Source of the DNA: an uncultured Ignavibacteriaceae bacterium
Lineage (GTDB): Bacteria; Bacteroidota; Ignavibacteria; Ignavibacteriales; Ignavibacteriaceae
Assembly: GCA_964430095.1 (NCBI GenBank)
Contig: CAYSGP010000216.1
Coordinates: forward strand, 1 to 28,022
Direction: 5' to 3'
DNA: 28,022 bases
Both the position numbers and the translations under genes were made by a program. Below are positions 8,106-28,022 of this stretch, piece by piece. The notes under the pieces are model-generated. The model searched no databases and was not told where the DNA came from. It was given only the letters and a program-made list of their open reading frames with translations. Position 1 is the stretch's first letter. Each line of letters starts with the position of its first letter.

Positions 8106-8106
8106 A

Positions 8107-9650: not shown

Positions 9651-10280
9651 CTATTTGCTTAAGATCATTTTTTTTACTTCGGAAAAATTTCCGGCCTGTA
9701 ATCTGTAAAAGTATACTCCGCTTGCCAATTCATTTGCATTGAATGATGCTTTGAAAAACCCCGCAGGTTTTATTTCACTTACAAGTGTGGTTATTTCGGT
9801 TCCAATAATATTATATATTTTTAATAATACAAATGAGTGTTCTGCAATGTAATATTCTATTGTGGTGGAAGGATTAAACGGATTAGGATAATTCTGAAAA
9901 AGCTGAAATGATAAAGGAGTATTTGTTTTTCCATAAACAGAAGTGGTACTCAAAACTGTAATTGTACCGGCCATTCCTACACCGCCTGGACTGCCATGAG
10001 GGACGCAATAATATCTATGTAATCCTTCATTTGAAATAACTTTTGAGAAGACGCGAATAGTACTTGTAATAGGAGAGTTCCAGGAATCAATTCCTGAAGT
10101 AACGTCAGATGTAGTTGTGTGAATCCCGTTCTGCCACTGCCATTCAACTGTATCACCGGCTGCAATATTTATATCTTTTGGATCGAATTCAAAGTCTCTT
10201 ACAAAAATAATATGTTTGGTTTGTCCAAGGCTGATTGCAAGACTGCCAGATAATAACAAAAGAAAAAAACAATTTTTCAT
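9651..10280 (-). CDS. Plastocyanin/azurin-family cupredoxin with a T9SS (Por) C-terminal sorting domain
   Basis: Signal peptide; FEFDPKDINIAAGDTVEW; type-1 copper ligands GIHTTTS and YYCVPHGSPGGVGMAG; CTD FQLFQNYPNPFNPSTTIEY...SGVYFYRLQAG...KKMILSK. Confidence 0.9.
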   Translation of the reverse strand: MKNCFFLLLLSGSLAISLGQTKHIIFVRDFEFDPKDINIAAGDTVEWQWQNGIHTTTSDVTSGIDSWNSPITSTIRVFSKVISNEGLHRYYCVPHGSPGGVGMAGTITVLSTTSVYGKTNTPLSFQLFQNYPNPFNPSTTIEYYIAEHSFVLLKIYNIIGTEITTLVSEIKPAGFFKASFNANELASGVYFYRLQAGNFSEVKKMILSK

Positions 10281-11117: not shown

Positions 11118-12485
11118 ATGAGCAGCAAAAATTCAAAAATATTAGTCTGTGATGATGATGAAACTCTGTGTTATCTATTAAAAGAGCAGCTTCTGGAAGA
11201 AGGTTTTTCGGTTGATACTGTTTATGATGGAAGTTATGCAATTGATGCTATTAAAAGAAAACCTTCATATGATGTTCTTTTACTGGATCTTGAAATGCAG
11301 AATGTACCGGGTGAAGAGGTATTAAAATTTGCAAACGATTATTGTACGTCAATCCAGGTGATTGTACTTACTGCTAAATCTGAAATTAAAAAAGCAATTG
11401 AATGTATTAAGCTGGGAGCCTACCACTATATTACCAAACCATATGATTTTGACGAGCTGCTTCTGGATATAAACAAAGCAATTGAGCATAAAGAACTATT
11501 TGTTAAAAGCACTATACTTGCAGACCAGCTAAATAAAAAACACCCCAATAAAATTTTAGGCAGCAGCTCAGAGCTTCATAAGACACTTCATTTGGCTAAC
11601 AAAGCAGCTCAATCCGATTCCAATATTTTAATTGAAGGAGAAACCGGTACGGGTAAAGAATTATTTGCCGAGTATATACATAAACGTTCCGCAAGAGTCG
11701 AAAAACCGTTTGTAGTTGTAAACTGTGCCTCACTGCCGGATCAGCTTATTGAAAGCGAATTATTCGGACATGAAAGAGGTGCATTTACAGATGCAAAATC
11801 TACTAAGCAGGGTTTAGTTGAAATAGCTCATGGGGGTTCCCTTTTTCTCGATGAAATAGGCGAGTTATCTCTTTCGCTTCAGCCTAAATTACTGCGCTTC
11901 CTGGAAAATGGAGAATATCGAAGAATCGGTGGAGTAACCAATTTAACCTCAAACGTCCGTGTAATCGGAGCTACAAACAGAAATCTTCTTGAAGAAGCAG
12001 ATATTAAAAATTTTAGAAGAGATCTTTTGTTCCGGTTAAACGTAATTACCCTTACCATTCCTCCTTTAAGAGAAAGAAAGGAAGATATTCTACTCCTGGC
12101 AAATCATTTTCTCACTTCTAAATCTTCCATTAGAGCTCCTAAAAAGTTAACTCCTAAAGCAGAAGCTACTTTGGTTACATATGATTTCCCTGGAAATGTA
12201 AGAGAACTTGAACATATAATTGAACGAGCAATAATCTTCGCAGAGGGAGAATATATAAACGTGGAAGATTTGAATCTGCCAGCTTCTTCCAGAAAACTGA
12301 CAACAATTGATGAGGATAACGGCAAGTCAGAAGAAATTCTAAGTATTGAGGAAATGGAAAAAAGGCATATAGCAAAAGTGCTTAGGCATAACAGATGGGA
12401 CAGAACCCGAACTGCCAGTATTTTAGGCATCAGTCCAAAAACACTTTACACCAAGATTAAGAAATATGAAATTAAACAAGAATAA
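11118..12485 (+). CDS. Sigma54-dependent Fis/NtrC-family response regulator (REC-AAA+-HTH)
   Basis: REC (DDD, LLD, KPY); Walker A GETGTGKE; ESELFGHERGAFTDA; LFLDEIGEL; FRRDLLFRLNV; FPGNVRELE; HTH RTRTASILGISPKTLY. Confidence 0.95.
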   Translation: MSSKNSKILVCDDDETLCYLLKEQLLEEGFSVDTVYDGSYAIDAIKRKPSYDVLLLDLEMQNVPGEEVLKFANDYCTSIQVIVLTAKSEIKKAIECIKLGAYHYITKPYDFDELLLDINKAIEHKELFVKSTILADQLNKKHPNKILGSSSELHKTLHLANKAAQSDSNILIEGETGTGKELFAEYIHKRSARVEKPFVVVNCASLPDQLIESELFGHERGAFTDAKSTKQGLVEIAHGGSLFLDEIGELSLSLQPKLLRFLENGEYRRIGGVTNLTSNVRVIGATNRNLLEEADIKNFRRDLLFRLNVITLTIPPLRERKEDILLLANHFLTSKSSIRAPKKLTPKAEATLVTYDFPGNVRELEHIIERAIIFAEGEYINVEDLNLPASSRKLTTIDEDNGKSEEILSIEEMEKRHIAKVLRHNRWDRTRTASILGISPKTLYTKIKKYEIKQE

Positions 12486-12488
12486 TGA

Positions 12489-14477
12489 ATGCTCTCTAAA
12501 ATTGTTACTAAATACGCACTGAAAGATCTCTTAGAAACAGAGAGTGGTCTGGCAATTGCTGACGCAAATAAAAAAATAATTTGGTATAATAAAAGCTTTA
12601 AGGAAACTGCCGGATTAAAAAAAATTAAGGGAAGAAAATTTGAGGATCTTTTCCCTAATGCAAATTGGAAAAAACAGGATTCAGGGAAGAAGAAAAAAAA
12701 TTCCGTTGAAACACTAATTTCACCCGAGCATCAAAAACTTGAGATAGCGTCGCTCAAGAATGGAACTGCAACCGAGTACTTTACTTTAAAAATAAAAACG
12801 GTAGCTCAGGAAAAAATCACAACCCATCTTGATGCGGAATTACTGAATCGAGATCTTTCTTTTCAAAATGTACTTAAAGAAGTCCTTTCGTTTTTAACTA
12901 CAGAAAAATCAATAACCTTCGTATCGGAAGAGCTACTTAAAAGATGTGTAGCAGTTTGCAGAGGGAATTTCGGTATAACCGTCATCTTTAAAAAGGATAA
13001 AAAAGTTGAATATATATATTTTGATCAGTATCAGCATTTAAAGAATAAAAAAGATGCTGAGAAAGAGATTAAAGCCAGCTTTTCTTTTTTAAAGAAATGG
13101 TTTGAAGTAAATAAGCATACCCTTATGGCTTTAAATGAACATGGAAATATTGCCTACAATCTGACGCGAGCTCTTCAAAGCCAAACCTTATTAGCTTCCC
13201 CTTGTTTTTATAATGGGGAACTTCTGGCAGTAATAATTATTGGAAAGGGGAAAGGAATTTTTTCCTCACTAGACGTTAATTACCTCGAAAAATTTGCAGA
13301 TCTTTTGGCGCTTGCAATTAATAGTGCTTACAATGAAGAATTAAATAATGCGCTTGAGACAAGACTTCAGCAGGCTCAAAAGCTGGAAACTATAGGAAAA
13401 TTAACAAGCGGAATGGCTCACGATTTTAATAATCTTCTTTCCAGTATTTTCGGAAGTCTTAACCTTCTCAAAAAAAGGGTTCCTGAAAATGAAAATACGT
13501 TCCGGCTGATTGATAATATTGAAAATTGTTCTATAAGAGCTAAAGATTTGACTAAGGGATTATTAACATTCGGGAAACCTACCCAGAAAAGGAAAGAAAT
13601 TATTAAACCGAATGTTCTTTTAACTGAAATTAGTAAAGTAGTGACTCAAACCTTTCCAAGGACTATCAAATTTGAAATGGATTCAGAAGACCGTCTCCAT
13701 AATTTATTGGGAAACAGCACTGAAATATATCAGGTTCTCCTGAATTTATGCGTAAATGCAAAGGAAGCTATCGAAAAGGAAGGAAAAATTGTTTTATCAG
13801 CCAGAAATATCCAAGTCAATGAACATAATTTAATAAAATATCCGCACCTTAGTAAAAATAATTATGTTTTATTCTCTGTAAAAGATAATGGCTCAGGAAT
13901 ATCCGAGGAAAACATCCAAAAAATATTTGAACCTTATTTCTCAACTAAAGAGAAAGAGACAGGATCTGGTCTGGGGCTGTACATTACTTACGGTATAATA
14001 AAAGCTCACGACGGTTATATTGAGGTAATCAGCAAATTAAATAAAGGCACAGAGTTTAACATTTATCTTCCCTCCTACGAACCCGTAAAAGCAGAAGAAA
14101 AAGCTGCTCCCCATGCTTCGGAAAAAATAATTCTGCTGGCAGATGACGAAATGATGTTGCGGGATTTGCTTGCAGAACTTCTGGAATCACAAGGTTATAA
14201 TGTTATAAGAGTCGCCACCGGTAAAGAGGTTCTGACAGTGCTTACGGAAGAATTAAAGGTTGATTTAATAATTATTGATTATAATATGCCTGAAATGAAC
14301 GGTTTGGAATGTATCAGGAGAATAAAAGAACTCGATTTTAAAATGCCGATTATACTTTCTACCGGAAGTTTATCTGTTGAAGAAAAAGTAGGCTCAGATA
14401 CTGACGGGATAAGCAGCGTGTTGACGAAACCATATGAATTCGATACGATGCTTAATACAATTCAAAAATTAATCTGA
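12489..14477 (+). CDS. Cytoplasmic hybrid histidine kinase (PAS-like, GAF, HisKA, HATPase, REC; CckA-type H-box)
   Basis: GMAHDFNNLL H-box; QVLLNLCVNAKEA; DNGSGIS; IFEPYFSTK; GSGLGL; C-terminal REC (ADDE, IID, KPY). No obvious TM helix. Starts 3 nt after the activator stop. Confidence 0.93.
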   Translation: MLSKIVTKYALKDLLETESGLAIADANKKIIWYNKSFKETAGLKKIKGRKFEDLFPNANWKKQDSGKKKKNSVETLISPEHQKLEIASLKNGTATEYFTLKIKTVAQEKITTHLDAELLNRDLSFQNVLKEVLSFLTTEKSITFVSEELLKRCVAVCRGNFGITVIFKKDKKVEYIYFDQYQHLKNKKDAEKEIKASFSFLKKWFEVNKHTLMALNEHGNIAYNLTRALQSQTLLASPCFYNGELLAVIIIGKGKGIFSSLDVNYLEKFADLLALAINSAYNEELNNALETRLQQAQKLETIGKLTSGMAHDFNNLLSSIFGSLNLLKKRVPENENTFRLIDNIENCSIRAKDLTKGLLTFGKPTQKRKEIIKPNVLLTEISKVVTQTFPRTIKFEMDSEDRLHNLLGNSTEIYQVLLNLCVNAKEAIEKEGKIVLSARNIQVNEHNLIKYPHLSKNNYVLFSVKDNGSGISEENIQKIFEPYFSTKEKETGSGLGLYITYGIIKAHDGYIEVISKLNKGTEFNIYLPSYEPVKAEEKAAPHASEKIILLADDEMMLRDLLAELLESQGYNVIRVATGKEVLTVLTEELKVDLIIIDYNMPEMNGLECIRRIKELDFKMPIILSTGSLSVEEKVGSDTDGISSVLTKPYEFDTMLNTIQKLI

Positions 14478-15146
14478 TTTATTTTCTTTCTTATCCACTT
14501 CGATCATTTTTATATTCTTAATGTATTCCGAGAATATCGGTTTCTTTATAGAATTAAGCTGATTTAATACATCATTTATTTCCATAATGCCGGATTCAAT
14601 ATAGCTCAGCCGTTTTTGAATATTTTCTTTTGATATTTCATCCTTGCTCAGCTCTCTTTTTATAGCTGCCAGGGAAAGGCTCATTAATGTTAAAGGCTGT
14701 TTAATTTTGTGGTTTGCAGTCACAACAGTTGCAGCAAAAGTATTTCTCTTCTCGGAGTCCACAAGCCGTTTGGTGGCTTCAGATAATTTTAATGCTGAAT
14801 TAACTCTTGCTAATAGCTCTATCCTGTTAAAAGGTTTTTTAACATAGTCATAAGCTCCGGCTTCCAAACCTTCTTTGGTATCTTCAGCACCCGCTTTGGC
14901 TGTAACCAGAATTATTGGAATATTAGAAGTAGCAGGATTTGAGACTAATGTTGTGCAAACCTCAAGCCCTGTTAATCCGGGCATCATTACGTCAAGAAGC
15001 ACCAAATCGGGTAAATCGCTCAAAGCTTTGTCAATGCCCGATTTTCCGTCATAAGCCGTAATTACTTCATAACCTTCGTTTTCAAGCCGGTCTTGCAGCA
15101 TAAAAACATTTTCAGGAAGGTCATCTATAACAAGAATTTTTTTCAT
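14469..15146 (-). CDS. Response regulator receiver fused to a HisKA/DHp-like domain without a HATPase domain
   Basis: REC (IDD, LLDVMMP, VTA, KP) followed by TANHKIKQPLT and a second helix, ending without N/G1/F/G2 boxes. Confidence 0.85.
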   Translation of the reverse strand: MKKILVIDDLPENVFMLQDRLENEGYEVITAYDGKSGIDKALSDLPDLVLLDVMMPGLTGLEVCTTLVSNPATSNIPIILVTAKAGAEDTKEGLEAGAYDYVKKPFNRIELLARVNSALKLSEATKRLVDSEKRNTFAATVVTANHKIKQPLTLMSLSLAAIKRELSKDEISKENIQKRLSYIESGIMEINDVLNQLNSIKKPIFSEYIKNIKMIEVDKKENKSD

Positions 15147-18100
15147 TTCACAACAGGTTTAGTTTTAGCGAACAGTTTTTCTATTTTAAATGCAAGCACT
15201 CCGGCGTTTACAGGTTTTGAAATATAATCATCAAAACCGTGCTTGAGTATTATTTTTTTATCTTCCAGCATTGCCTTAGCAGTTACGGCAAATACTGGTA
15301 TATTAGTCCAATTAGCAGTTTCTTTTATTTTTTTTATTGTTTGAAATCCATCCATAACAGGCATCATTATATCAAGAAGAATTAAATCCGGTATTGAAGC
15401 TTCTAATATCTGCATGCATTCAATTCCGTTCTTTGCCAATATGGTTTTGCAATTGCATGCTTGTATCATTTCGTTTAGAGTAAATAATGTATCTGCATCA
15501 TCATCTACAATCAAAACCTCCCCAAGGACAATTTTGGGTTTTTCTTGTTCCTTAATAGGAAATTCTTCTCTAGTATCGCTATTTAATTCTTCGGCATTTT
15601 CCATAAGCTCTTCCATATCAAACTGCATTCCATTCTTAAGGGAATCATTTTCTGCTGTTTCTTCCATTAGTTTAATCCTATCGCGGACAGTTTTTAAAAC
15701 ATCAATAGGATGTCCTTTAGATTTTACCGCAATTTCTTCTACTATATTGTTTAAAGATTCCTTTTCATCAGGAGATAAATCTTTGGCCGTGCTTATTATA
15801 ATAGGGATATTTTTTGTCTCCGTATTAGATTTAATCATATGAGAAAGAGTAATTCCGTCAATATTTGGCATCAGCAAATCAATTATTATTAAATCAGGCT
15901 GGATTTCTGCTATCTTATTAAGAGCAATTCTGCTGTCCTGGATATAATGAAATTTTACAGGTACAGTTTTAAAGGCAGCGTTAAATTTTTCAAATTCAAT
16001 TTCATCATCATCAACTATTACTATTTTTTCAATTCTTTTTTTAGCAATATTTTCCAGCTTCTCGAATGCTGAAAAAAGCTGTTCATGCGAGATTGGTTTT
16101 ACGAAATATTCAAATGCACCAAGACCATATCCAACTTTTTTATCACCAATAATTGAAATTAAAATAACAGGAATATCTCTCGTTAAAGAACTTTCCTTCA
16201 ACTCCTTTAAAACAGTCCAGCCATCCTTTTTGGGAAGCATTACATCCAATGTAATAGCAAACGGCTGCTTTTCAATAGCTTCTTTTATTCCTGTTTCACC
16301 ATCTTCCGCATAAATTACTTCATAGCCTCTAGAAATTAAGTATTGCCCTATAGTAAACCGGGCTTCTTTATCATCATCAATTACTAGGATAGGATTTCTT
16401 AGATTTTTTCTTAATACAGCGGCATTTACAACAAGCTCTGTTTTTTGATCTTTAATTTGAATTGATTTTAAAGGTATTTTGAAAATAAATTTCGACCCGC
16501 TGCCGAATTCGCTTTCAACAGACAAAGTACCGTTAAGAAATTCGGAAATACGTTTGCAGATTGCCAGACCCAGTCCTGTTCCGTTATATCTTTTCGTACT
16601 TGTTCCGTCTAATTGCCTGAATTCCTCAAAAATAATTTTTTGATGTTCTTTTGAAATCCCGATACCTGAATCGCATATTTCAAACTTCAAAAAATTACCG
16701 GAAGAATTAAATGATAATTTCTGATCCGTCAATTTTTTTTCTGTGCTGACATTTAGTTTTATAAAACCTTTTTCCGTAAACTTAATTGCATTGCCAAGTA
16801 AATTGATTAAGACTTGTGTTACTTTTCCCTTGTCGGTATGAACTAATATCTTAGTCTCCAAGTTTCTTTTTATTTCAAAATCAATATTTTTTTCCTGAAC
16901 AAGAGGCATGAAAGATTCCTGAATCTCATTAAGTAAATCATCAAGCAGGAAATCCTCTTCTTTCAAGTCAACTTTACTCGCTTCAATTTTTGAAAGATCT
17001 AGAATATCATTAATTAAGTTCATCAGCCTTTTACCGCTGTTATTAACCACCTGCAGTCTTTCCTTATTTTTTCCTTTCAAACTAGAATCTTCCAGCATCA
17101 ATTCCGTTAGCCCAAGAATTGAATTCATAGGAGTTCTAAGTTCATGAGACATGGAGGCAAGAAATTGGGATTTTAATTTTGTCGATTCTTCAGCCTTTTC
17201 CTTTTGAATCTCTAATTCTCCGGCTTTTTCCTTTACTTCATTATGAAGTTTTACCAGTTTCTCATTTTGATGTATAATTTGGATATTCTGTTTTTGATAC
17301 TCTTCATTAAGTTTTTTTAATTCAGAAACGAGGTTTTCCATTTGTATGAAAGCAACTGCATTGGTTATTCCTATTGCCAGCTGTTCCTGTATCTTTGCCA
17401 GGTATTCTTTTGCTTCTTCCGAAGGAGGATCTACCGAACCAAGTTCAAGAATTGCAATTATCTTATTGTTATAAACTACCGGCTGTATAAGAAGGTATTT
17501 TATTTGCAGCTTTAATATTCCGGCAGAAATAGTGGGATAATTTTCTTCAAAATTTATTTCGACTAATTCACGATCCTTTACAAGTGTATTGAAATAATTT
17601 ATTTCTTCTGTTAAAGAATAGCCATCGGGCAACCCGAAAGATGAGGTTAAGGTGATTTTATCATTTACAATGGAATAAAGGGCACCAATTGTGAATTTCC
17701 CGGTTTTTATGATTTTCTTTAATGCTGCATCTGCGGCTTCTTTTAAAGTCGGATTTTTATTAATTAATGTTATGAATTCTGAATATTCATTTTTTGCTTT
17801 AAGGTTTTTTTCCAGAACATCCAGCATTTTATTAAATGCTTCCGCTAATTTTCCAAGTTCATCGGTGCTTTCTACTTTTATCTTGTTCTTAAAATTTTCA
17901 TCAACAATTGTTTCGGTAGCCCTGGCCATCTGAGTAATTTGTTTTCTCATTTTCCCGGTAAACAAATATGTCAATATCAATGAAAGCACTATTCCTGCAA
18001 AACCAATAACAATTGAAATATATTTTAGACTGCTCCTGATTTCGACTCCTTCACCATGAGAAACAAAGATTAAGAACTTCAGTCCGGGTTCCTGATCATA

Positions 18101-18751
18101 AGATTCCGTGTAGCATAAAGACGCTAAGATATCTCCCTCGTCCGTTTCCTTTGAATAAATATTAAAGTCGTTTCTTTTGTTGAGCGCTGAATATGCTTCT
18201 ACTAAATATGGGATATATTTATTATTTATAGATTCATTCGAAAATAATAAGGGAATTCCGTTGGAGACTACCGCAATATCGGCTTTAATCTTCTTTGATA
18301 TGGAAGTTAAAAGAGATGGGGAAATCATCTTGCCGTAATAAAAAATCTTGTCTCCAAAGATGATTTTTCTAACTATCAATCCTGGATTATTGGCAATCAA
18401 ACTTTTCAGGGTAATTTCTTTAGGGATATTAAAGAAGTTGGTCCAGTATATCAATTGATTAAAACCATTGTCGCTTTTCAAAATAAAATCAATATTTTCG
18501 TTAATTAATGATTTATTCAGCTCAACGATGCCCGACGATTCATTCAACTTCAACTTAAAAAAAATTTCATCAATGTTTTCAAGTTCGTCGCGGTATGCGT
18601 ATAAAAAATCGTTGCTGGAGTTAATCAGGTATTTTGATTGCTGATTGGTAAGAATGCTTGATATTACCGAATAAAAAGCTAAAGCCGAACTGCCAATTAT
18701 TACCAAAACGATGGCAAAATTGATGAACAGAATCCGGTAACTTATTTTCAT
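15143..18751 (-). CDS. Membrane hybrid histidine kinase: periplasmic sensor-HAMP-GAF-HisKA-HATPase-3xREC
   Basis: Two TM helices; HAMP (STDELGKLAEAFNKM); GAF; MSHELRTPMN; NLLGNAIKFT; DSGIGIS; GTGLGLAI; three receivers with intact Asp (ITLD, IIID, ILLD). Confidence 0.93.
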   Translation of the reverse strand: MKISYRILFINFAIVLVIIGSSALAFYSVISSILTNQQSKYLINSSNDFLYAYRDELENIDEIFFKLKLNESSGIVELNKSLINENIDFILKSDNGFNQLIYWTNFFNIPKEITLKSLIANNPGLIVRKIIFGDKIFYYGKMISPSLLTSISKKIKADIAVVSNGIPLLFSNESINNKYIPYLVEAYSALNKRNDFNIYSKETDEGDILASLCYTESYDQEPGLKFLIFVSHGEGVEIRSSLKYISIVIGFAGIVLSLILTYLFTGKMRKQITQMARATETIVDENFKNKIKVESTDELGKLAEAFNKMLDVLEKNLKAKNEYSEFITLINKNPTLKEAADAALKKIIKTGKFTIGALYSIVNDKITLTSSFGLPDGYSLTEEINYFNTLVKDRELVEINFEENYPTISAGILKLQIKYLLIQPVVYNNKIIAILELGSVDPPSEEAKEYLAKIQEQLAIGITNAVAFIQMENLVSELKKLNEEYQKQNIQIIHQNEKLVKLHNEVKEKAGELEIQKEKAEESTKLKSQFLASMSHELRTPMNSILGLTELMLEDSSLKGKNKERLQVVNNSGKRLMNLINDILDLSKIEASKVDLKEEDFLLDDLLNEIQESFMPLVQEKNIDFEIKRNLETKILVHTDKGKVTQVLINLLGNAIKFTEKGFIKLNVSTEKKLTDQKLSFNSSGNFLKFEICDSGIGISKEHQKIIFEEFRQLDGTSTKRYNGTGLGLAICKRISEFLNGTLSVESEFGSGSKFIFKIPLKSIQIKDQKTELVVNAAVLRKNLRNPILVIDDDKEARFTIGQYLISRGYEVIYAEDGETGIKEAIEKQPFAITLDVMLPKKDGWTVLKELKESSLTRDIPVILISIIGDKKVGYGLGAFEYFVKPISHEQLFSAFEKLENIAKKRIEKIVIVDDDEIEFEKFNAAFKTVPVKFHYIQDSRIALNKIAEIQPDLIIIDLLMPNIDGITLSHMIKSNTETKNIPIIISTAKDLSPDEKESLNNIVEEIAVKSKGHPIDVLKTVRDRIKLMEETAENDSLKNGMQFDMEELMENAEELNSDTREEFPIKEQEKPKIVLGEVLIVDDDADTLFTLNEMIQACNCKTILAKNGIECMQILEASIPDLILLDIMMPVMDGFQTIKKIKETANWTNIPVFAVTAKAMLEDKKIILKHGFDDYISKPVNAGVLAFKIEKLFAKTKPVVK

Positions 18752-19116
18752 TATGAATCTCTTTGTAAGACTTTCCTTATTGTAATTAGAAGTTCGTCAA
18801 AGTCATAAGGTTTGCTAATAAAGTCACCGGCTCCCATCTTAGCAGAATCTATTGCGCTTTTTACATCGGCGTAAGCGGTTAAGACTATAACTTTAGATTT
18901 GATTTTTTTTGTTTCAAGCTCTTTTAATACTTCGAATCCATCCTTCTCCGGCATTTTCAGATCAAGAAGAATTAAGTCAACTGAACGCTTTGCAAGGAAA
19001 GTAAAGGCATCATCACCCTTGCTTACATAATCAGCATCATAGCCGACTTCACTTAATTCCTCCTTCAAAGCAGAACAGAGGCTTAGATCATCATCAACAA
19101 TAAGTATGGATTCCAT
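18751..19116 (-). CDS. Single-domain response regulator
   Basis: 121 aa REC: IVDDD, LLDLKMP, VLTA, KPYDFDELL; stop overlaps the kinase start (TAATG). Confidence 0.93.
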   Translation of the reverse strand: MESILIVDDDLSLCSALKEELSEVGYDADYVSKGDDAFTFLAKRSVDLILLDLKMPEKDGFEVLKELETKKIKSKVIVLTAYADVKSAIDSAKMGAGDFISKPYDFDELLITIRKVLQRDS

Positions 19117-19132
19117 AAATATTTAATGCTCG

Positions 19133-20356
19133 CTATTCCTGATTAAACTTATAATATTTAATCTGCTCACGATGCTTGTTTACTTCATCTTTTATCGGAG
19201 TATTAGAATGTGCACCTGCAACTCTCTCCTTAAGAGTTGGAACTAATTCACATTTGAGAAGAATTATCAATTCTTTCCTGTTAATCGTAATTTCCTCGCT
19301 TCCAAATAAATATCTCAAACCGAAAAACCACCATGGAAGATCCTTAAGTATGGGGATTCCTCTTCGGGAGGTGGTTTCATCATTAATGAATAATCCACCT
19401 ACTATAACTTCTTCACCATTAAGCATAAGCACCTGAGTAGTTGCCGAAGTTTTTTGAATCTGAGTTACTACAGGATCTGGTATATAAGAACTTCTTTCGG
19501 CTTTAATTTCAAGCACAGTATATTCAACCTCATCTTCTGTGTACACATGAGGAGTAACTTCAATGATGGTACCTGTTGAATAGAAATTTTCAATTATATT
19601 TCCTGAAAAATCTCTCTGTTTAATTCCTATATCAACTCCAACTTGAATTCTCCCTATTTGATTATCTCTAACAGTTACATTCGGGCTTGCAATAATTTGT
19701 CCAAGCTGTTCTTTTTCAAAAAATTTGAATATCGCAGTTGCTTCGCCGAAAAAACCACCCAGATCAAAACTTCCAGTGCCTTTAAGTTTGAAATCAGGGG
19801 CTTGCTGTTGATTACCTTGCTCAGAGGTTTCTGTCTTTGTCTCAGGCTCATTAAATAATTCTCCGTTAACATTCAATCCTTGTTTCGAAAAAAGAAACTG
19901 CCAGTCGACCCCTCTTTTTTTGGCTTCATTATCATCCATCTCGAAAAATACTGCTGACAATTTGACTTCCCTGCTGTTAATATCCGCATAAGTTTTTGCG
20001 GTTCTATCTATTTCAATATCATCCTTTTTCTTAACAATTATTACATCTTCTTTCTCTTCATACATCATCCCCTGCATTTGAACCAGGATCAATAAAGCCT
20101 TATCATAAGCCATGTTTTTTATTTCAATCCCTACCGGACTTTCCGAATCAACAGTCGTAACTATTCTTTTCCCGGTTATGCTTTCGCTTACCTTGCTCAA
20201 TAAAGCTATAGCCTGATTGAATGGAAGATTAGGTGACATTGATACCAGTTCATCGGGTCGTGTATATCCTCTCAGGGTTTTTTCGAGTAAATCCTGAGAA
20301 TGAACTGACAGCGTAAAGCTTAATAATAAAATAACGGTTGTTAAGAGTTTTTTCAT
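19133..20356 (-). CDS. pilQ: Type IV pilus secretin (short form)
   Basis: Signal peptide; N0-like domain; secretin core from REVKLSAVFFEM...GVDW; IIASPNVTVRDNQ; GTIIEVTPHV; VLMLNGEEVIVGGL; RGIPILKDLP...LF...RKELIILL. Confidence 0.9.
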   Translation of the reverse strand: MKKLLTTVILLLSFTLSVHSQDLLEKTLRGYTRPDELVSMSPNLPFNQAIALLSKVSESITGKRIVTTVDSESPVGIEIKNMAYDKALLILVQMQGMMYEEKEDVIIVKKKDDIEIDRTAKTYADINSREVKLSAVFFEMDDNEAKKRGVDWQFLFSKQGLNVNGELFNEPETKTETSEQGNQQQAPDFKLKGTGSFDLGGFFGEATAIFKFFEKEQLGQIIASPNVTVRDNQIGRIQVGVDIGIKQRDFSGNIIENFYSTGTIIEVTPHVYTEDEVEYTVLEIKAERSSYIPDPVVTQIQKTSATTQVLMLNGEEVIVGGLFINDETTSRRGIPILKDLPWWFFGLRYLFGSEEITINRKELIILLKCELVPTLKERVAGAHSNTPIKDEVNKHREQIKYYKFNQE

Positions 20357-20371
20357 TTTAAATTCTCACAA

Positions 20372-21259
20372 TTATTTTTTCTTAATATTTTCTTTTTCCA
20401 GGACTAAATCAATTTTTTCAACAATACCGCCCTTATTGATAATAAAGTTCACTTTATTATGATCATAATCAATATTGGTTAGATAACCAAGATAAACAGG
20501 TTCACCTTCCCAAAGCAGGTATGTATTTCCTTTTATATCAGAGAGGAAGGCGCCTTCAGGTATAAGTGCAAGCAATTTACCTCCTTGAACATCAAACAAC
20601 TCATCAACATTCGGAGGTATTTCATTTCTAAGCAGCGGATAAAATGCATCATACATTGTCCTTGTACTTAAATCATTTTCAATAAATTCCGCAGTCGAGA
20701 ACCTATCATCTGATGAATAATAAACATGTACCTCCATACTGAAACCCACTAAGAAATTGGGAATCCCCATTTCATCTGTCGCTACCTGGTTTGATAAGCT
20801 AAATGAGGTAATTTTTTTAAGTTCTTTACTTTGTTCGATTGCATAAATAAATTGATAAAGCTCATTATAAGTTGCAGAACCTGTAATTTTATAATTAAAA
20901 TAAAAAAAGTCTTTATCAGGTTTTTGTTCAATATATTCGACGTCTATTTTAGAGGTGGAAGAGAACCCCGCAGTGATATTATTTACGAAATCATAAAATT
21001 TAATAGAGGAAAGATTCTGAGGTATGTTGAATTTTCGCGCTGCTAGAACTGAGTCCAACTCAGAAGCTTTTACTAACAAATTATCATACTGCTGCTTTAA
21101 TTGGGAGGTATTATAATCATTAGCTTTCAATTCTTTTAACTTATCTTGTTTTTCAGACAACTTACCCCTTTGAATAATAAAGGTGTATGCGCCTCCGGTA
21201 AGCAGAATGAAAATTAATAAGCTCAGAAGAGCAAACGTATTTTTTAATTTTCTATTCAT
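20372..21259 (-). CDS. pilO: PilO-like alignment protein with a C-terminal PilP-like domain
   Basis: N-terminal TM, coiled coil, and ferredoxin-like PilO core (ITGSATYNELYQFIYAIE); lies between pilMN and pilQ; about 90 extra C-terminal residues resemble PilP. Confidence 0.7.
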   Translation of the reverse strand: MNRKLKNTFALLSLLIFILLTGGAYTFIIQRGKLSEKQDKLKELKANDYNTSQLKQQYDNLLVKASELDSVLAARKFNIPQNLSSIKFYDFVNNITAGFSSTSKIDVEYIEQKPDKDFFYFNYKITGSATYNELYQFIYAIEQSKELKKITSFSLSNQVATDEMGIPNFLVGFSMEVHVYYSSDDRFSTAEFIENDLSTRTMYDAFYPLLRNEIPPNVDELFDVQGGKLLALIPEGAFLSDIKGNTYLLWEGEPVYLGYLTNIDYDHNKVNFIINKGGIVEKIDLVLEKENIKKK

Positions 21260-22796
21260 CCTTGTCTTTCAAATAACTTGATAAATTATATTGTAAATTA
21301 AACCTGTAAATATTTTTATCTCTAAGATCCTCGGAGAAAATTCCCTTCAATTCAGATACATTGATCGAATACGCAAATTGTGTTAATACACTTTTACTCA
21401 GAGAATATCCTTCAAGATTTACATTTCTATTATCACTGGAAGTTAATCTCGTTGACCATATATTTCCTTTACCTGCAAAGAAATCTGATATATGTGCCAG
21501 ATTTCTAGACCAAACACCAGTGCCCTTTGAAGCAGAGTCTAAAATTGCTTGAGTCTGTCCAAAGCTGCTTATTTTATTTTCCACTGAGGAAATTTTTCCC
21601 AATAATTCCTGATTTTGCCTTAGAAGACCTGAATACTTTATAACTTCCTGGTCCAATGCACTCAGTTTTTTATTATTTAATAGAGCTTGAGTGGTGATAA
21701 AGAATGTAGCAGCAAATAATAACGGTACAATTGCATACCCATGCCAGGCAAATTGAAATGATTTTTGATCTTCCTTTACATACCTGGGAAGAAGATTGAT
21801 CCCTTTATATTCTTCGGCAATTTCCTCGAAGTATTCATTAGCAACTGCAATCGGAATACTAAAAGCAGAAAATGTTTCTTTAATATCACTCCCCAAAGAA
21901 CTTAAATCAAGGTCATCGAATTCTAAGCGGGAAACATTTGCCTCAGGAAAAGTTCCGTAGAAAGAAAGAATCAAATTTTCCGAATCATCTTCACCGCAAA
22001 CTATGATGTTATCCAGCTGTGAGACTCCCCCATTTTCCATTTCAAGCAGAATCTTTGAAAAATAAACATCATAAGTATTTAAATTTATTGTTCCGATATC
22101 CAGGGTTGAACCGATATGCTTGAGTTTTCTTCCGTGAAGAAATATTAATTTACTATATTCTTTACCGATGTAAACAATTAAAGATTGATCATCCGGGAAG
22201 AATTTTTTTCTTTTGGCTACATAATAGGCTAAAGAAATTTCCGCACTTTTGACAGTAGGAATTTTATAATTCCGTTTTCCGTTCAGCTGGGCTAGGGAAT
22301 TAATTAATCTAAAACAGCCGACATCATTACTGAGGAAAACAGATAGAATTGATTTATCTGCTAATTCTATATAGCCAAGACTTTCTTTGTCAACTGAAAT
22401 ATTTTTTGTCTGATATATATCATCAGCAATTTCTTGCGTTAGCTTAACTGATTTACTCTTCTTGGATCCTTCATAAATATGATAAATAATGGAAGGTTCA
22501 GTTAATGCTGGGATAAAGAAAGCTTTATTTAATACGATTCCTCTTAAAGAGGAATTAATTACATTCAAACCGGAAGTATTTACACTCTGTGTCAAGGAAG
22601 CTTGTTTATCGAGTCCTTCGAGCGTTAATTCTTCCCCTTCAATTTTTAATTCCCCAATTCCGTCATCAACCTCCAAGGCAGGCTGAAGAACATCGAAAGA
22701 TATGGTTTTAAGGACTTTTATTTTATCCTTTACTTTTTCTACTGCGGCAATTTTGGTATCATTGCCTTCGCAGTAAACACAAATCAGCTGTCTCAC
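21252..22796 (-). CDS. pilM: PilM-PilN fusion protein
   Basis: Actin-like N-terminal domain, then the PilN signature INLLP (aa 333-337, nt 21786-21800), a TM helix, a coiled coil and a PilN-like C-terminus (VNLEGYSLS). GTG start. Confidence 0.75.
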   Translation of the reverse strand: MRQLICVYCEGNDTKIAAVEKVKDKIKVLKTISFDVLQPALEVDDGIGELKIEGEELTLEGLDKQASLTQSVNTSGLNVINSSLRGIVLNKAFFIPALTEPSIIYHIYEGSKKSKSVKLTQEIADDIYQTKNISVDKESLGYIELADKSILSVFLSNDVGCFRLINSLAQLNGKRNYKIPTVKSAEISLAYYVAKRKKFFPDDQSLIVYIGKEYSKLIFLHGRKLKHIGSTLDIGTINLNTYDVYFSKILLEMENGGVSQLDNIIVCGEDDSENLILSFYGTFPEANVSRLEFDDLDLSSLGSDIKETFSAFSIPIAVANEYFEEIAEEYKGINLLPRYVKEDQKSFQFAWHGYAIVPLLFAATFFITTQALLNNKKLSALDQEVIKYSGLLRQNQELLGKISSVENKISSFGQTQAILDSASKGTGVWSRNLAHISDFFAGKGNIWSTRLTSSDNRNVNLEGYSLSKSVLTQFAYSINVSELKGIFSEDLRDKNIYRFNLQYNLSSYLKDKDE

Positions 22797-24068
22797 TTAT
22801 ACCGCCGATAATAGTTGTTGAATTCTTGTTTTATTATTTGCAAATGCAACAGCATTTTCTAATGTCACTTTTTTATTTAAGTATAGTCTCTTCAAATCCT
22901 GTTCCATTGTAATCATTCCCATCTGTCCGCCTTGATTCATCATCATGTATATTTCGCTTGTAGTATTGTTTTTTATGGCTGCTTTTACACTAGGGGTGAC
23001 TACTAAAACTTCTTTAGCGAGAATTATTTTTCCGTCTACCCCTGGAACTAATTTCTGTGATACAATAGAAATCAAAACATCTGCCAAGCGGTTTCTTACT
23101 CTTTCCTGCTCGTTGGGATGAACTTCAGCTACAATCCTATCTATTGATTCTACAGCGGATGATGTATGCAATGTAGAAAATACTTTATGACCGGTATCTG
23201 TTACCTCTAATGCAGCCATAATTGTATCAGGATCTCTCATTTCACCAATAACAATAACATCCGGATCCTGTCGTAAAGCTTGTACAATTCCGTCTTTAAA
23301 TGAGAGAACATCTTTCCCTACTTCTCTATGCTTTATTATGCATTTATTGGATTTATGAACATATTCAATCGGGGAAGCTATTATTACAACATGAGCGGGA
23401 TCCACTTTATTATGCGCATCAATTATTGCATCGAGCGTTGTTGATTTTCCCGAACCAGTTATACCTGTTATTAAAGAGAGTCCGAATTTGATGTACATAT
23501 GGCTCATGGCTCTTATGACATTTTGATGAAAGTCGTATGATTCTAAAGTGCGAACACCTTGATTAATAGCTCTCATGTTAAGTGCAAGTGTATCCAGATC
23601 ATAGTATGCGTCTGCTCTGAAACGAATATCAATTTTTTTCCTTTCATATAAAAAAGAATAGCTGAAATCAAGATTTCTTGTAACTGTTAGATATTTTCTC
23701 TGGTTGGCATTTAAAAGATTTATTAACACTACTGCAGATTCATCTTCCGAAAATTGCGGCAGGTCGTAAGCCCTTTCTTTTTTTCCATAAATTCTGAACC
23801 AAACAAAGCCTCCATTTCCGTGTCCGCCTATTTCAATATCAGAAGCTTCTCTTTCAACCATGCTGGTGAGCAGTCTATTGAAATAATTTTTAAGAAGAAT
23901 TCTTTCATCTGCTTTCAACTTCTCTATATTTTCAATAATAAAGGAGATACGTTCGGGACCATAATAAAATTTTGGAATTGTATTCACAAAATTCTGGAGA
24001 GTAGTTTTTACATCATTAATGGATATAGTTTCCTTCTGCTGAATAGGTTTCACACTTGGAGTCGCCAC
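22797..24068 (-). CDS. pilT: PilT/PilU family type IV pilus retraction ATPase
   Basis: Walker A GITGSGKST; SPIEYVH; HREVGKD; ALRQDPDVIVIGEMRD; TGHKVFSTLH; ISIVSQKL; GMITMEQDL. PilT versus PilU is not resolved. Confidence 0.85.
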   Translation of the reverse strand: MATPSVKPIQQKETISINDVKTTLQNFVNTIPKFYYGPERISFIIENIEKLKADERILLKNYFNRLLTSMVEREASDIEIGGHGNGGFVWFRIYGKKERAYDLPQFSEDESAVVLINLLNANQRKYLTVTRNLDFSYSFLYERKKIDIRFRADAYYDLDTLALNMRAINQGVRTLESYDFHQNVIRAMSHMYIKFGLSLITGITGSGKSTTLDAIIDAHNKVDPAHVVIIASPIEYVHKSNKCIIKHREVGKDVLSFKDGIVQALRQDPDVIVIGEMRDPDTIMAALEVTDTGHKVFSTLHTSSAVESIDRIVAEVHPNEQERVRNRLADVLISIVSQKLVPGVDGKIILAKEVLVVTPSVKAAIKNNTTSEIYMMMNQGGQMGMITMEQDLKRLYLNKKVTLENAVAFANNKTRIQQLLSAV

Positions 24069-24305: not shown

Positions 24306-25562
24306 TTATTCATACCATGAAAGAATTTCAAACTTGTTTGTACCAGGGAAATATGGAGGAGAGATGGTCATAAATCTTTCATCGTATATATATCTTTTTG
24401 AATACCCATGCACCATTTGCTGTGTAGAACTGTTAAACTGACCAACAGGCTTTCGCTCATGCTGGATTAATCCTCCGAATAGATTAATTGCACCGCAAGA
24501 TGATGGTGACCTGTCATCATAATCTTCAGCAGTAAATCCTTTTTCTGTATAAATTGAACCATGTATATTAATGTTTTTAGTTGCTGTAGAATTCGTAATA
24601 GTTACATCCCCCTTTGCTACAATTCCCAGCATGTCTTGCGTTTTATCATTGTATACTATATCGTCATCAATCCAAACACCCGCAGTTGTTCCGATAGAAT
24701 AATCTCCTTTTAGAGTACCTTTTAATCTAACATCTATAGGCGTTCCATATCTATCTGTGGCATCAACAAAAATAACTCCGTTGGAACTTAAATCTGATGT
24801 TTTTACAGTTGCTTCTGTAACCCTATCATACCATGTATTGCTGACCTTTTCTCTCCAGTTATATTTATAATACACAGAATCTTGCTTAAATGTCAAATAA
24901 AATGTTTCATAACGAGTGGTGCTATTCGATTGTAAATTAAAAAGCTTACCGCCATTATTTACTGCATCCTCTCTTAGGTTACTTACCCCATCGGTTGGCA
25001 TAGGGCAATCTCCTAAATCATAACCCCCTAAAAACTGAGGATTGTCAGATGGTGATTTCTTTACTACACCCAGTTTAGTAGTAACTCTACCAAAGAAAAC
25101 CGGTTTACCACTTACATATAATTTATCCTGCGTATGAAATGGTCCCCAGCAGGTATCTTTTGACATCCAGTAAATTGTACCATTTTTATCTTCATCTTCA
25201 CAAAAATATGCATACTTAGAAAACTTACTTGGTGCAATTATCATCTGAACTCTGCTTGTACATGAATCATATCTTCCAATAGTTGTTACTATTTTGCGTT
25301 CACCGTCCTGTTCAACTGTTGTTTCAAATGTCCCACCATTATATGACGTTTCCACGAATCCGGAATCCCACTCCGGATTAAATGATATTTTTGCTGCAGC
25401 CAAGTTTGCAGCACTTACTGCTATCTCATGAGAAACTGTGTTGGTGTAATACCTTACAGAATTCTGAACAGATCTTGTTGAAACATCCCCAAGATTTCTC
25501 CCCATGATTAGGAAGATAACACTAAATGACATTACTAAGAAAAGAATGGCTTTCCCGCTCAT
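24306..25562 (-). CDS. PilX-like minor pilin with a large C-terminal domain (DUF4900-like)
   Basis: GGAGG SD; N-terminal hydrophobic helix followed by SHEIAVSAANLA; FSKYAYF, GPFHTQD, LGIVAKGDV, NLFGGLIQ and GYSKRYIYDERF...PPYFP are typical of PilX-like proteins in pilus clusters. Confidence 0.65.
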   Translation of the reverse strand: MSGKAILFLVMSFSVIFLIMGRNLGDVSTRSVQNSVRYYTNTVSHEIAVSAANLAAAKISFNPEWDSGFVETSYNGGTFETTVEQDGERKIVTTIGRYDSCTSRVQMIIAPSKFSKYAYFCEDEDKNGTIYWMSKDTCWGPFHTQDKLYVSGKPVFFGRVTTKLGVVKKSPSDNPQFLGGYDLGDCPMPTDGVSNLREDAVNNGGKLFNLQSNSTTRYETFYLTFKQDSVYYKYNWREKVSNTWYDRVTEATVKTSDLSSNGVIFVDATDRYGTPIDVRLKGTLKGDYSIGTTAGVWIDDDIVYNDKTQDMLGIVAKGDVTITNSTATKNINIHGSIYTEKGFTAEDYDDRSPSSCGAINLFGGLIQHERKPVGQFNSSTQQMVHGYSKRYIYDERFMTISPPYFPGTNKFEILSWYE

Positions 25563-25574
25563 TTTTTTTCCTCC

Positions 25575-26189
25575 TTATCTTTTTAAATTTTGCACCGATA
25601 GGCGTATCTGCCTCCAGAAAACTTGGGATTGGGTACTATCATAATGCTCCGGATCGTAAGCGTATACATTTTCAACCGCAACATCTATCATCATTCTTTG
25701 AGCACCTTCAACCGGATAATCAGTTAATTCGGTGCCGAGTCCGTCAAAGTAACGAAGACGGAAATGCGTAACCCCGAGATTAATACGGACTGGGGTTTCA
25801 TTATTTATTACACGATACAAATATTTATCTCTGGGATTCGGAGTACTCAATAGTTCAGATGTAGGCCCCGTATAGTAATCTACTGTTTCCCATCCAAAAT
25901 CTTCATCAATATCTGCTTTAAATCTAATATGAGTTGAATCTGCCAGCAGTATTATATCAGAAAGTTTAGTTACTGTAGCGATCTGATCCAGGTCGCTGGA
26001 ATAGCCGATTTTTCTAAAATCATATTCAATAACAGACACGACGGCAGCAATGTTTTCCTGTGCAATTAATTCGCCCGTATTGTTATAAACATTTTCAGTT
26101 CCTGCATCATTGAGACGGAATAACAATAACATTACTATTCCTCCAATTATCATGGAACCGATTACATCAATTAATGTAGTGAATCCCAT
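25575..26189 (-). CDS. PilW/GspJ-like minor pilin
   Basis: Start reassigned to ATG 26189 (GGAGG SD): MGFTTLIDVIGSMIIGGIVMLLLF pilin-like helix; IEYDFRKIGY resembles the 'l..DlR.aGy' segment of PilW-type pilins. Confidence 0.65.
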   Translation of the reverse strand: MGFTTLIDVIGSMIIGGIVMLLLFRLNDAGTENVYNNTGELIAQENIAAVVSVIEYDFRKIGYSSDLDQIATVTKLSDIILLADSTHIRFKADIDEDFGWETVDYYTGPTSELLSTPNPRDKYLYRVINNETPVRINLGVTHFRLRYFDGLGTELTDYPVEGAQRMMIDVAVENVYAYDPEHYDSTQSQVFWRQIRLSVQNLKR

Positions 26190-26197
26190 TATTCCTC

Positions 26198-26701
26198 CTA
26201 CCTTAAAAACCAATAACTGAAAATTGAGCTTAATTGTATGACATCTCTCATATAATCACTAGTTATGGTAACAGTAATCATTTTATTAAATGTTTTACCG
26301 GAAGCAGGTATTGTTGGATTATTTTCATTAACATAAACAACTCTGCAGGTAACGTTAAAAACGGCAGAAGGAAGAGTTTTAACAGTATCATGCCATCCGT
26401 TATAATCATCAAAATCATCAAAAGTATAAGCCGAATCCGGGTTTTCACCGTCGTCATAACCAATAGTGGAAAATAAATCCTTATTTTTAATTTCTCCGAT
26501 TGTAGAATCTGTTGTTATCTTATCAAATTTTAAATTTCTCGCTTCCTGGATTACTGATGTTGCAATTGAGGTAGCTAAGAATATATACTTTGATTGATCC
26601 AATACTTCATCGGAGGCCATAAAAGTACTATTTACTCTCATAACTATGGTTGAAAGTAAAATCATAGCTCCAATGGCTAAAATCATCTGACCCGTATTCA
26701 T
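26198..26701 (-). CDS. PilV/GspI-like minor pilin
   Basis: MNTGQMILAIGAMILLSTIVM hydrophobic N-terminus; ATSIATSVIQEARNLKFD; KMITVTIT near the C-terminus; first of three pilin-like genes after pilB. Confidence 0.6.
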   Translation of the reverse strand: MNTGQMILAIGAMILLSTIVMRVNSTFMASDEVLDQSKYIFLATSIATSVIQEARNLKFDKITTDSTIGEIKNKDLFSTIGYDDGENPDSAYTFDDFDDYNGWHDTVKTLPSAVFNVTCRVVYVNENNPTIPASGKTFNKMITVTITSDYMRDVIQLSSIFSYWFLR

Positions 26702-26811: not shown

Positions 26812-28022
26812 TTATTCATCAGTCGTACCGGACAATACTTCTTCAATAGAGGTTAAACCGAGTTTGACCTTTTCTAATCCTGATTCTCTTAAGTTTAGTG
26901 TCCCATCCTTTTTTGCCTGTATTCTTATCTTTTCTTCATCAACTTCTACTCCGGAACGGACAATTAATTGCCTTATTTCTTTTGTAAAATACAAAGATTC
27001 ATGAATAGCCATGCGTCCTTTATAACCGGACCCGCTGCACTTATCACATCCATGCGCTTTATATATTGTAACATTTCTCCATTGGTTCATATCCATTCCC
27101 GCTGCTGTCATCAATCCTTCATCCATTTCAGTTACTTTTCTTTTACATTCGCAAAGTCTTCGAATGAGCCTTTGTGCTACAATTATATTGATTGCATAAG
27201 CAATTAAAAATGGTTCAATACCCATTTTGTAAAGTCTTGCTACCGCACTGGGTGCATCATTAGTATGAAGTGTGGAAAATGTTAAGTGGCCTGTATTGGC
27301 AAGCTTAATAGCAACTTCCGCCGTTTCTTTATCTCTCATTTCACCTACTAGGACTATATCAGGATCGTGACGAAGGATGGATCTGATGGCCTGCTCGAAA
27401 TTCATCTTATGTCCTATCTTTAACTGCCTGGCGCCTTCTATTACATATTCAACCGGATCTTCAACCGTAAGTACATTTACTGTCGGGTCAATTACCTGAT
27501 GAAGAGCTGCAACAAGAGTCGTACTTTTTCCGGAACCAGTTGGCCCGGTAAGGATAACCATGCCCTGAGGCTGAGAGATAGCTTTTTGGAATGCCTGTTT
27601 AGCATAACCCGTTAAACCTAGTTTATCCAGATCTTTTACAACTTTTCTGTCATCCAGAATTCTTATCACAACACTTTCAAATTTATTTTTTAACTCTGTT
27701 CCAACCATCGGCAAAACAGATACTCTGAATCGTATTAAATAGCCATCAATTTCACGCTGTATAAAACCATCTTGAGCTCTCTCACGTTCAAACCTATCCA
27801 TACCTTTAGATCTATCCTTAACTACTGCTATTACAGCTTCAGGCAAAGTATTATCCTGAACGTGCCAAGGCTGGAGATTACCATCAATTCTTATAAGAAT
27901 TTCTGTCTTATTCCCAGATTTCGGGATGAAATGAATATCGCTGGCTCCTTTTCTTACTCCATCAACAAGTGCACCTTCAACTAGATTAATTAATGCGCTT
28001 TTATTGATTTCAGATTCTAGTT
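26812..28022 (-). CDS. pilB: Type IV pilus assembly ATPase PilB/GspE (5' end outside the window)
   Basis: The frame stays open to the window edge (...GASDIHFIP...IRIDG...); QDG; FRVSVLP; ESVVIRILD; Walker A GPTGSGKST; TVEDPVE; LRHDPDIVLVGEMRD; TGHLTFSTLH; GYKGR. The track's start at 27846 is internal. Confidence 0.93.
   Translation of the reverse strand, partial: LESEINKSALINLVEGALVDGVRKGASDIHFIPKSGNKTEILIRIDGNLQPWHVQDNTLPEAVIAVVKDRSKGMDRFERERAQDGFIQREIDGYLIRFRVSVLPMVGTELKNKFESVVIRILDDRKVVKDLDKLGLTGYAKQAFQKAISQPQGMVILTGPTGSGKSTTLVAALHQVIDPTVNVLTVEDPVEYVIEGARQLKIGHKMNFEQAIRSILRHDPDIVLVGEMRDKETAEVAIKLANTGHLTFSTLHTNDAPSAVARLYKMGIEPFLIAYAINIIVAQRLIRRLCECKRKVTEMDEGLMTAAGMDMNQWRNVTIYKAHGCDKCSGSGYKGRMAIHESLYFTKEIRQLIVRSGVEVDEEKIRIQAKKDGTLNLRESGLEKVKLGLTSIEEVLSGTTDE

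Follow-up and report, generated by a model that had tools for sequence, protein, structure and literature searches.

A probable PilO-PilP fusion in a type IV pilus operon of an uncultured Ignavibacteriaceae bacterium

A 28,022-nucleotide (nt) stretch of DNA from an uncultured Ignavibacteriaceae bacterium (assembly GCA_964430095.1, contig CAYSGP010000216.1, positions 1 to 28,022; hereafter, the window) contains an open reading frame (ORF) which very likely encodes the PilO subunit of a type IVa pilus (T4aP)-like system, with a PilP module covalently attached at its C-terminus. PilP is a separate lipoprotein in which an RDPFxP motif is followed by a beta-sandwich; it is homologous to the HR domain of GspC, which binds the N0 domain of the secretin. 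A sequence-only reading of the window had proposed a PilO-PilP fusion at this place, and profile comparisons together with structural modelling bear the proposal out for both halves, the identities of which we consider highly probable. The ORF is genuine, starts with ATG and encodes 295 residues; the peptide quoted in the sequence-only reading corresponds to residues 203-272. The protein is organized as follows.

20372..21259, minus strand: the whole ORF of the PilO-PilP-domain fusion, 295 residues, with homologs across both domains and an AlphaFold (AF2) model.
21173..21229, minus strand: single N-terminal transmembrane (TM) helix, residues 11-29; maximum of 2.31 in a 19-residue Kyte-Doolittle window, helical in the model.
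21014..21172, minus strand: periplasmic coiled-coil region, residues 30-82; model helices 3-47 and 51-74, aligning to the coiled coil of Myxococcus xanthus PilO.
20714..21013, minus strand: PilO core, two alpha-beta-beta repeats, residues 83-182; from AF2 elements and Foldseek.
20579..20713, minus strand: conserved linker, residues 183-227, with the motif (N/D)(P/A)F-x-P-L...PPN in the alignment of relatives.
20636-20650, minus strand: DAFYP motif, residues 204-208, within the linker.
20399..20578, minus strand: domain resembling PilP and GspC-HR, residues 228-287; from the model, hhalign and Foldseek.

Judged by sequence homology and the predicted structure, the N-terminal half is PilO. The protein has a single hydropathy peak (residues 11-29), which follows the basic tail MNRKLKN and gives a bitopic, N-in topology. 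A profile of 109 diverse family members searched against PDB sequences retrieved M. xanthus PilO (3jc8_Oa, E=1.4e-7, query positions 11-162), the match taking in the TM helix and the coiled coil besides the core. The same profile matches PilO of Pseudomonas aeruginosa (2rjz) weakly, and the corresponding search with a shallow profile returned no PDB sequence. The AF2 model computed from the diverse 109-sequence alignment has a mean predicted local distance difference test (pLDDT) score of 92.8 and a predicted template modelling score (pTM) of 0.70; an earlier AlphaFold model made from 40 sequences at >=62% identity was unusable for the C-terminal domain (pLDDT ~30-40). In the model, the core consists of helix 85-96, strands 104-115 and 118-129, helix 131-143, and strands 148-161 and 167-182, that is, a ferredoxin-like core following a coiled coil. 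Foldseek places PilO structures (3jc8_Oa, 5uvr and 2rjz) at ranks 1-4 with a probability of 1.00, and the template modelling score (TM-score) normalised to the target is 0.69 for 5uvr. The gene position also fits PilO, with a PilN-like part encoded in the upstream gene and a secretin downstream.

The C-terminal ~110 residues are, on the evidence of profile alignment and modelling, homologous to PilP. The sequence-only reading had noticed about 90 residues in excess of PilO; the extension is real, and its length is ~113 residues (183-295), made up of a 45-residue linker with an xPF motif, a beta domain of ~60 residues and a short tail. F206, P208 and N217 are kept in >=90% of the 109 diverse relatives. 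The beta domain is modelled as six to seven strands at pLDDT ~97 (228-233, 236-240, 246-249, 258-264, 269-276, 279-286) and shows the strongest conservation within the family. For comparison, a PilP profile of 27 sequences was grown from the PilPs of PDB entries, every member of the family set carrying PF04351. Aligned to it by hhalign, the C-terminal profile (residues 186-295) gave a probability of 92.1% (P=6.3e-7, score 43.4, 105 columns), with NPF opposite the R(D/S)PF of PilP and every strand opposite its PilP counterpart. This agrees with the by-eye observation that DAFYP and the pattern following it resemble PilP. Scores were far lower for the controls, namely 100 column-shuffled PilP profiles (12.1±2.6, maximum 20.7), the reversed profile (13.9) and the PilO half against PilP (17.6). 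An alignment to the single sequence of M. xanthus PilP shows the same register; hhalign against the single sequence of Neisseria meningitidis PilP gave no match, the PilP profile being required, and the search of PDB sequences with the diverse profile found PilO and not PilP. A Foldseek comparison, which the sequence-only reading had suggested as a check, did recover the PilP fold when the full-length model was used as query: M. xanthus PilP (3jc8_Pa) is at rank 6 with E=5.5e-3, a probability of 1.00 and 127 aligned columns. Thus, the C-terminal part has both a beta-sandwich core homologous to GspC-HR and a conserved xPF motif in front of it.

The two-part protein belongs to a large family. 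In a database clustered at 90%, 1504 homologs were found, all of ~295 residues, all annotated as 'hypothetical protein' and all from metagenome-assembled genomes (MAGs) of Ignavibacteria. A search among representatives at 50% identity gave 363 clusters, and since nearly all of these are 280-320 residues long and span profile positions 1-290, covering both domains, the two-part architecture is the conserved state. A close relative is present in at least 282 species-level reference genomes, the best 80 of which are Ignavibacteria, Ignavibacteriales or similarly labelled MAGs. More distant members (22-30% identity) occur in Rhodohalobacter/Balneolales, Latescibacterota and Cloacimonadia, a few of them being named 'PilO' by IMG. 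When the protein and 40 family members were compared with Pfam and NCBIfam, the only match was a spurious one to PAP_PilO confined to the TM helix.

The fusion gene is accompanied by the following genes and ORFs of the pilus system.

26812-28022, minus strand: PilB-like ATPase, 344 residues in the ORF list; the frame continues without a stop to the window edge, where the gene is cut off.
24306-26701, minus strand: three pilin-like ORFs with hydrophobic N-termini typical of (pseudo)pilins.
22797-24068, minus strand: PilT-family retraction ATPase (TIGR01420, 320.5 bits versus a cut-off of 319.1).
21252-22796, minus strand: 514-residue partner protein encoded upstream of the fusion, its C-terminal third PilN-like.
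19133-20356, minus strand: short secretin of 407 residues (PF00263, 3.6e-25).
~20012-20224, minus strand: N0-like domain of the secretin, residues ~45-115, from profile matches to PilQ.

The fusion gene and the 514-residue gene overlap by 8 nt, with the ATG of the former upon the stop codon of the latter (ATGAATAG), and the secretin ATG lies 15 nt past the stop of the fusion gene. The genes are translationally coupled, and the operon leaves no room for a separate pilP, just as the sequence-only reading had stated. One of the three pilin-like ORFs has a weak match to DUF4900. The N_methyl pilin model of Pfam had no match among the ORFs of the window, these three included, and neither a major pilin nor a prepilin peptidase was recognised in the 28 kb. 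The same gene order is kept in relatives. Related loci were sampled with the shallow alignment of close relatives, which covers Ignavibacteria only. Among the 78 Ignavibacteria loci with an identified fusion ORF, 68 have a gene of ~514 codons overlapping the fusion-gene start, and in 59 a secretin ORF (~405-434 residues) starts at most ~20 nt from the fusion stop. Five distant loci, from Rhodohalobacter (Balneolales), a Cloacimonadia MAG and three metagenome contigs, encode in succession a PilT-like ATPase, a large protein without Pfam matches (523-756 residues), the fusion and a secretin of 393-410 residues.

The 514-residue protein had been read as a fusion of PilM and PilN, of which the PilN part holds. 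Its profile matches M. xanthus PilN among PDB sequences (3jc8_Na, E=2.3e-8, profile positions 364-484), and nine of 15 orthologs match Pfam PilN weakly; as a single sequence, the protein has no match in Pfam or among PDB sequences. A single TM helix (residues 355-373) lies between a cytoplasmic domain of ~340 residues and the PilN-like periplasmic part. For the N-terminal 340 residues, phmmer and profile searches of PDB and Pfam yielded no PilM match, PilN being the only one obtained. This domain is PilM-like by position only; were it PilM, the whole would amount to an M-N fusion resembling GspL. Ortholog lengths vary between 509 and 756 residues, with SPOR or TPR additions in some. The secretin comprises a signal peptide, the N0-like domain, one N domain and the secretin core, and has no AMIN domain. 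Its profile matches M. xanthus PilQ at 2e-29, and the N-terminal part matches positions 491-566 of the same protein (3.4e-4), positions 309-372 of P. aeruginosa PilQ (0.02) and a fragment of N. meningitidis PilQ, 4ar0 (9e-4).

In the arrangement that we propose, the PilO part would pair in the inner membrane with the PilN part of the 514-residue protein, and the xPF linker may act as the N-terminal segment through which PilP binds PilN/PilO. The beta domain would reach up and dock edge-on, by beta-strand pairing, onto N0 of the secretin encoded downstream, on the model of PilP-PilQ and GspC-GspD, and would thereby bring the platform in the inner membrane into alignment with the pore in the outer membrane. 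The TM helix of PilO would substitute for the lipid anchor, with the O:P ratio presumably fixed at 1:1, and, taken together with the fused upstream protein, two polypeptides would take the place of the four-protein PilMNOP scaffold in this lineage. Such contacts are known from related systems. In Neisseria, the C-domain of PilP binds N0 of PilQ (PMC3441751); GspC-HR, the structural homolog of PilP, binds N0 of GspD in the type II secretion system (T2SS) (PMC3169554); and PilO and PilP of M. xanthus interact directly in the yeast two-hybrid assay (PMC3724824). We grade the predicted contacts lower than the domain identities.

Several observations weigh against the fusion as described. The contacts with N0 and with the PilN part are inferred ones. 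The Foldseek match to PilP is modest, with a target-normalised TM-score of 0.38 at the E-value of 5.5e-3, and its target is a modelled chain of 3jc8; with the same full-length query, the experimental structures of PilP (2ivw, 2lc4, 2y4x) and GspC-HR (3oss) fall outside the Foldseek top 50. The canonical PilP hidden Markov model (HMM), PF04351, reaches only E>=0.5 on the fusion ORFs, both PF04350 and PF04351 are below threshold in all 40 members scanned, and neither half passes Pfam or NCBIfam. Finally, the scan for a stand-alone pilP was limited to the window and ~1 Mb of related flanks.

Some of these points also lend support to the alternative that survives best, namely, that the C-terminal domain is a PilP-like beta-sandwich which does not bridge to the secretin and instead stabilises PilN/PilO oligomers or binds peptidoglycan or pilins, the secretin being aligned in another way. 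Besides the inferred nature of N0 docking and the modest Foldseek score, AMIN domains or SH3-like inserts beside the PilP domain in some relatives would be in line with it, as they suggest contacts with the cell wall. AMIN is a peptidoglycan-binding domain, the usual carrier of which is PilQ. In some relatives (P0170, P0175, P0193, P0197 and P0199), the PilO-PilP protein itself ends in an AMIN domain (PF11741, with E-values as low as 6.5e-12), and the secretin of such relatives is still short (393 residues at locus L083, where the PilO-PilP protein with AMIN is encoded at 7001-8245). In a subgroup of ~354-363 residues (P0179 and P0235; locus L085, 7001-8065), an insert of ~60 residues with weak matches to SH3 domains (E ~6e-4 to 3e-3) separates the PilO and PilP modules. 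However, homology extends over the full PilP core and takes in beta1-beta2, the region through which N0 is bound (PMC3441751), the fusion gene is always located directly upstream of a secretin that retains an N0-like domain, and conservation within the family is highest in the beta domain itself. A domain without a bridging role is therefore improbable in our estimate, and docking onto the secretin remains the preferred reading.

The anchor of the PilP-type module differs from that of canonical PilP. The 295-residue protein has no cysteine, and a lipobox is absent from all 109 relatives; therefore, the module is anchored via the TM helix of PilO, as the sequence-only reading had envisaged, and not via a lipid. 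There is neither a lipobox signal peptide nor a separate gene product, the single ORF being continuous with the PilO module, and because the lipoprotein feature was tested for and is absent, we refer to a PilP-homologous domain rather than to canonical PilP. It could be argued that the genome encodes a canonical lipoprotein PilP at another place, which would make the fused domain an additional, paralogous HR-type module. The scan covered local DNA, and since the T4P proteins of this lineage are divergent enough to evade Pfam, a divergent PilP could do so too. Nevertheless, the PilP HMM and an HMM of the family's own C-terminal domain found no other PilP-like ORF in the window, and when all ORFs of the window and 86 related loci (~1 Mb) were scanned, each of the 87 sources had one PilP-like domain and no match to the canonical PilP HMM. 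Accordingly, the caveat raised in the sequence-only reading, a canonical pilP elsewhere, is answered for the window and these loci. The pilP-less operon structure is also kept across several lineages of the Fibrobacterota-Chlorobiota-Bacteroidota (FCB) group. In addition, the genome paper of Melioribacter roseus names only pilT, pilQ, pilB and pilC (PMC3534657), which fits the scaffold proteins being invisible to routine annotation. A separate PilP is thus very unlikely, and the fused module is taken as the PilP-type component of the system.

Equally unlikely is that the locus encodes a T2SS-like system or some other type IV filament and that the protein is better called a GspM-GspC(HR) fusion: PilO is homologous to GspM and PilP to GspC-HR, the upstream protein resembles GspL in having a cytoplasmic domain, a TM helix and a periplasmic domain in one chain, the window lacks an N_methyl pilin match and two relatives show weak matches to T2SSM_b, but a PilT-family ATPase at the NCBIfam cut-off is present in the operon and conserved there in relatives, the secretin finds its best PDB matches in PilQ, both halves match PilO and PilP best rather than GspM and GspC, and an N_methyl pilin is found at the locus of one relative. 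The PilT-family ATPase in the operon indicates a T4aP-like system rather than a T2SS. GspC of T2SS resembles the fusion in carrying an HR/PilP-type domain on a TM helix instead of a lipid and in the expected edge-on binding to secretin N0 (PMC3169554). By contrast, in GspC its own TM helix directly precedes HR, a PDZ or coiled-coil domain is added and GspM is separate, whereas here the TM helix and the HR-type domain are separated by the PilO module, there is no PDZ match and PilT is in the operon. The combination that marks GspC (a TM helix next to HR, a C-terminal PDZ or coiled coil, and a PilT-less T2SS operon) is not found.

The sequence-only reading knew of no characterised case of this fusion. 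Korotkov et al. 2011 had already noted PilO-PilP fusions (P. putida Q88CU9) and inferred from them a 1:1 O:P stoichiometry (PMC3169554). Novelty is smaller than assumed because both the fusion class and the stoichiometry inference were published there; in the library searched, we found nothing on PilO-PilP fusions beyond that sentence. In both cases, the PilO module precedes the PilP module on a single chain, and the 1:1 inference is the same. They differ in that the 2011 case is a one-sentence database observation from a proteobacterium, with domains that are presumably canonical and recognisable by Pfam, whereas neither Pfam nor NCBIfam recognises the present family, which is conserved in several FCB-group lineages and accompanied by a fused PilN-containing partner and a minimal secretin. 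Almost certainly, the Ignavibacteria fusion arose independently of that in P. putida. The 295-residue protein is thus a highly divergent new case of a fusion kind already noted, and it most likely works like PilP.

Canonical T4aP of P. aeruginosa, M. xanthus and N. meningitidis, represented by the PDB structures 2rjz, 5uvr, 2lc4, 2y4x, 2ivw and 3jc8, share with the system described here the fold and topology of PilO, the xPF segment and beta-sandwich of PilP, the gene position between pilN and pilQ, and the presence of a partner N0 domain. Unlike in these systems, here a single polypeptide is encoded, devoid of signal peptide, lipobox and lipid anchor, and too divergent for PF04350 and PF04351. 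Another parallel is PilW of Thermus thermophilus, like GspC a TM-anchored HR-type protein. It is a PilP substitute of ~292 residues that is not a lipoprotein, has a C-terminal GspC-HR-like domain, is encoded between pilO and pilQ, and has been proposed to link PilQ to PilMNO (PMC13039148, PMC3724824). However, Thermus has a separate PilO, and the N-terminal region of PilW is a flexible Gly/Pro-rich spacer without similarity to PilO. Our protein has a bona fide PilO module as its N-terminal half, the only PilO encoded in the operon.

The assignment gives a function to a family of more than 1500 sequences labelled 'hypothetical' or at best 'PilO', and explains the apparent absence of pilM, pilN, pilO and pilP from T4P operons of Ignavibacteria and their relatives. 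Fusion across several FCB-group lineages provides independent 'Rosetta-stone' support for a direct contact between PilO and PilP at a 1:1 ratio, which Korotkov et al. 2011 had proposed on the basis of sporadic fusions, and suggests that the lipid anchor of PilP may be dispensable where the HR-type domain is tethered via PilO. The known mechanism is unchanged, and the compact system of two scaffold proteins and a 400-residue secretin could suit structural study. A more far-reaching and quite tentative idea is that the entire trans-envelope alignment scaffold of Ignavibacteria and allied FCB-group lineages is an ancient and streamlined system of two polypeptides, (PilM-like)-PilN plus PilO-PilP(HR), working with a minimal N0-N1 secretin. 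Were this so, it would be intermediate between T2SS, with its fused GspL and TM-anchored GspC, and proteobacterial T4aP; the TM-tethered HR could be ancestral and the lipoprotein PilP derived, AMIN would reside on the O-P protein instead of the secretin in some lineages, and a naturally stoichiometry-locked minimal machine would be available for structural work.

One relative goes further. At L084 (4194-6860), one of the five distant loci, an 888-residue ORF (P0196) runs in frame from the upstream protein into the O-P fusion (...HIELA|MTYGLRNT...). It has two TM-like segments, at residues ~382 and 613, and we reject it as a working single-chain M-N-O-P scaffold, given that two TM helices would leave the O-P part cytoplasmic. 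P0196 probably reflects the loss of a stop codon or an error of assembly.

Further genes of the window lie on the other side of the secretin. Directly downstream of it, on the same strand, is a single-domain response regulator (18751-19116, minus strand), followed by a 1202-residue hybrid sensor histidine kinase; the two ORFs share base 18751. Their arrangement (15143-19116, minus strand) points to a two-component system transcribed together with the pilus genes. A few kilobases from the pilus operon, 11118-14477 (plus strand) encodes a sigma-54-dependent response regulator of the NtrC/PilR type and then a PAS/GAF hybrid histidine kinase. Farther away, 9651-10280 (minus strand) encodes a small copper protein resembling plastocyanin and azurin, with a sorting domain for type IX secretion at its C-terminus (Por_Secre_tail, 1e-9).

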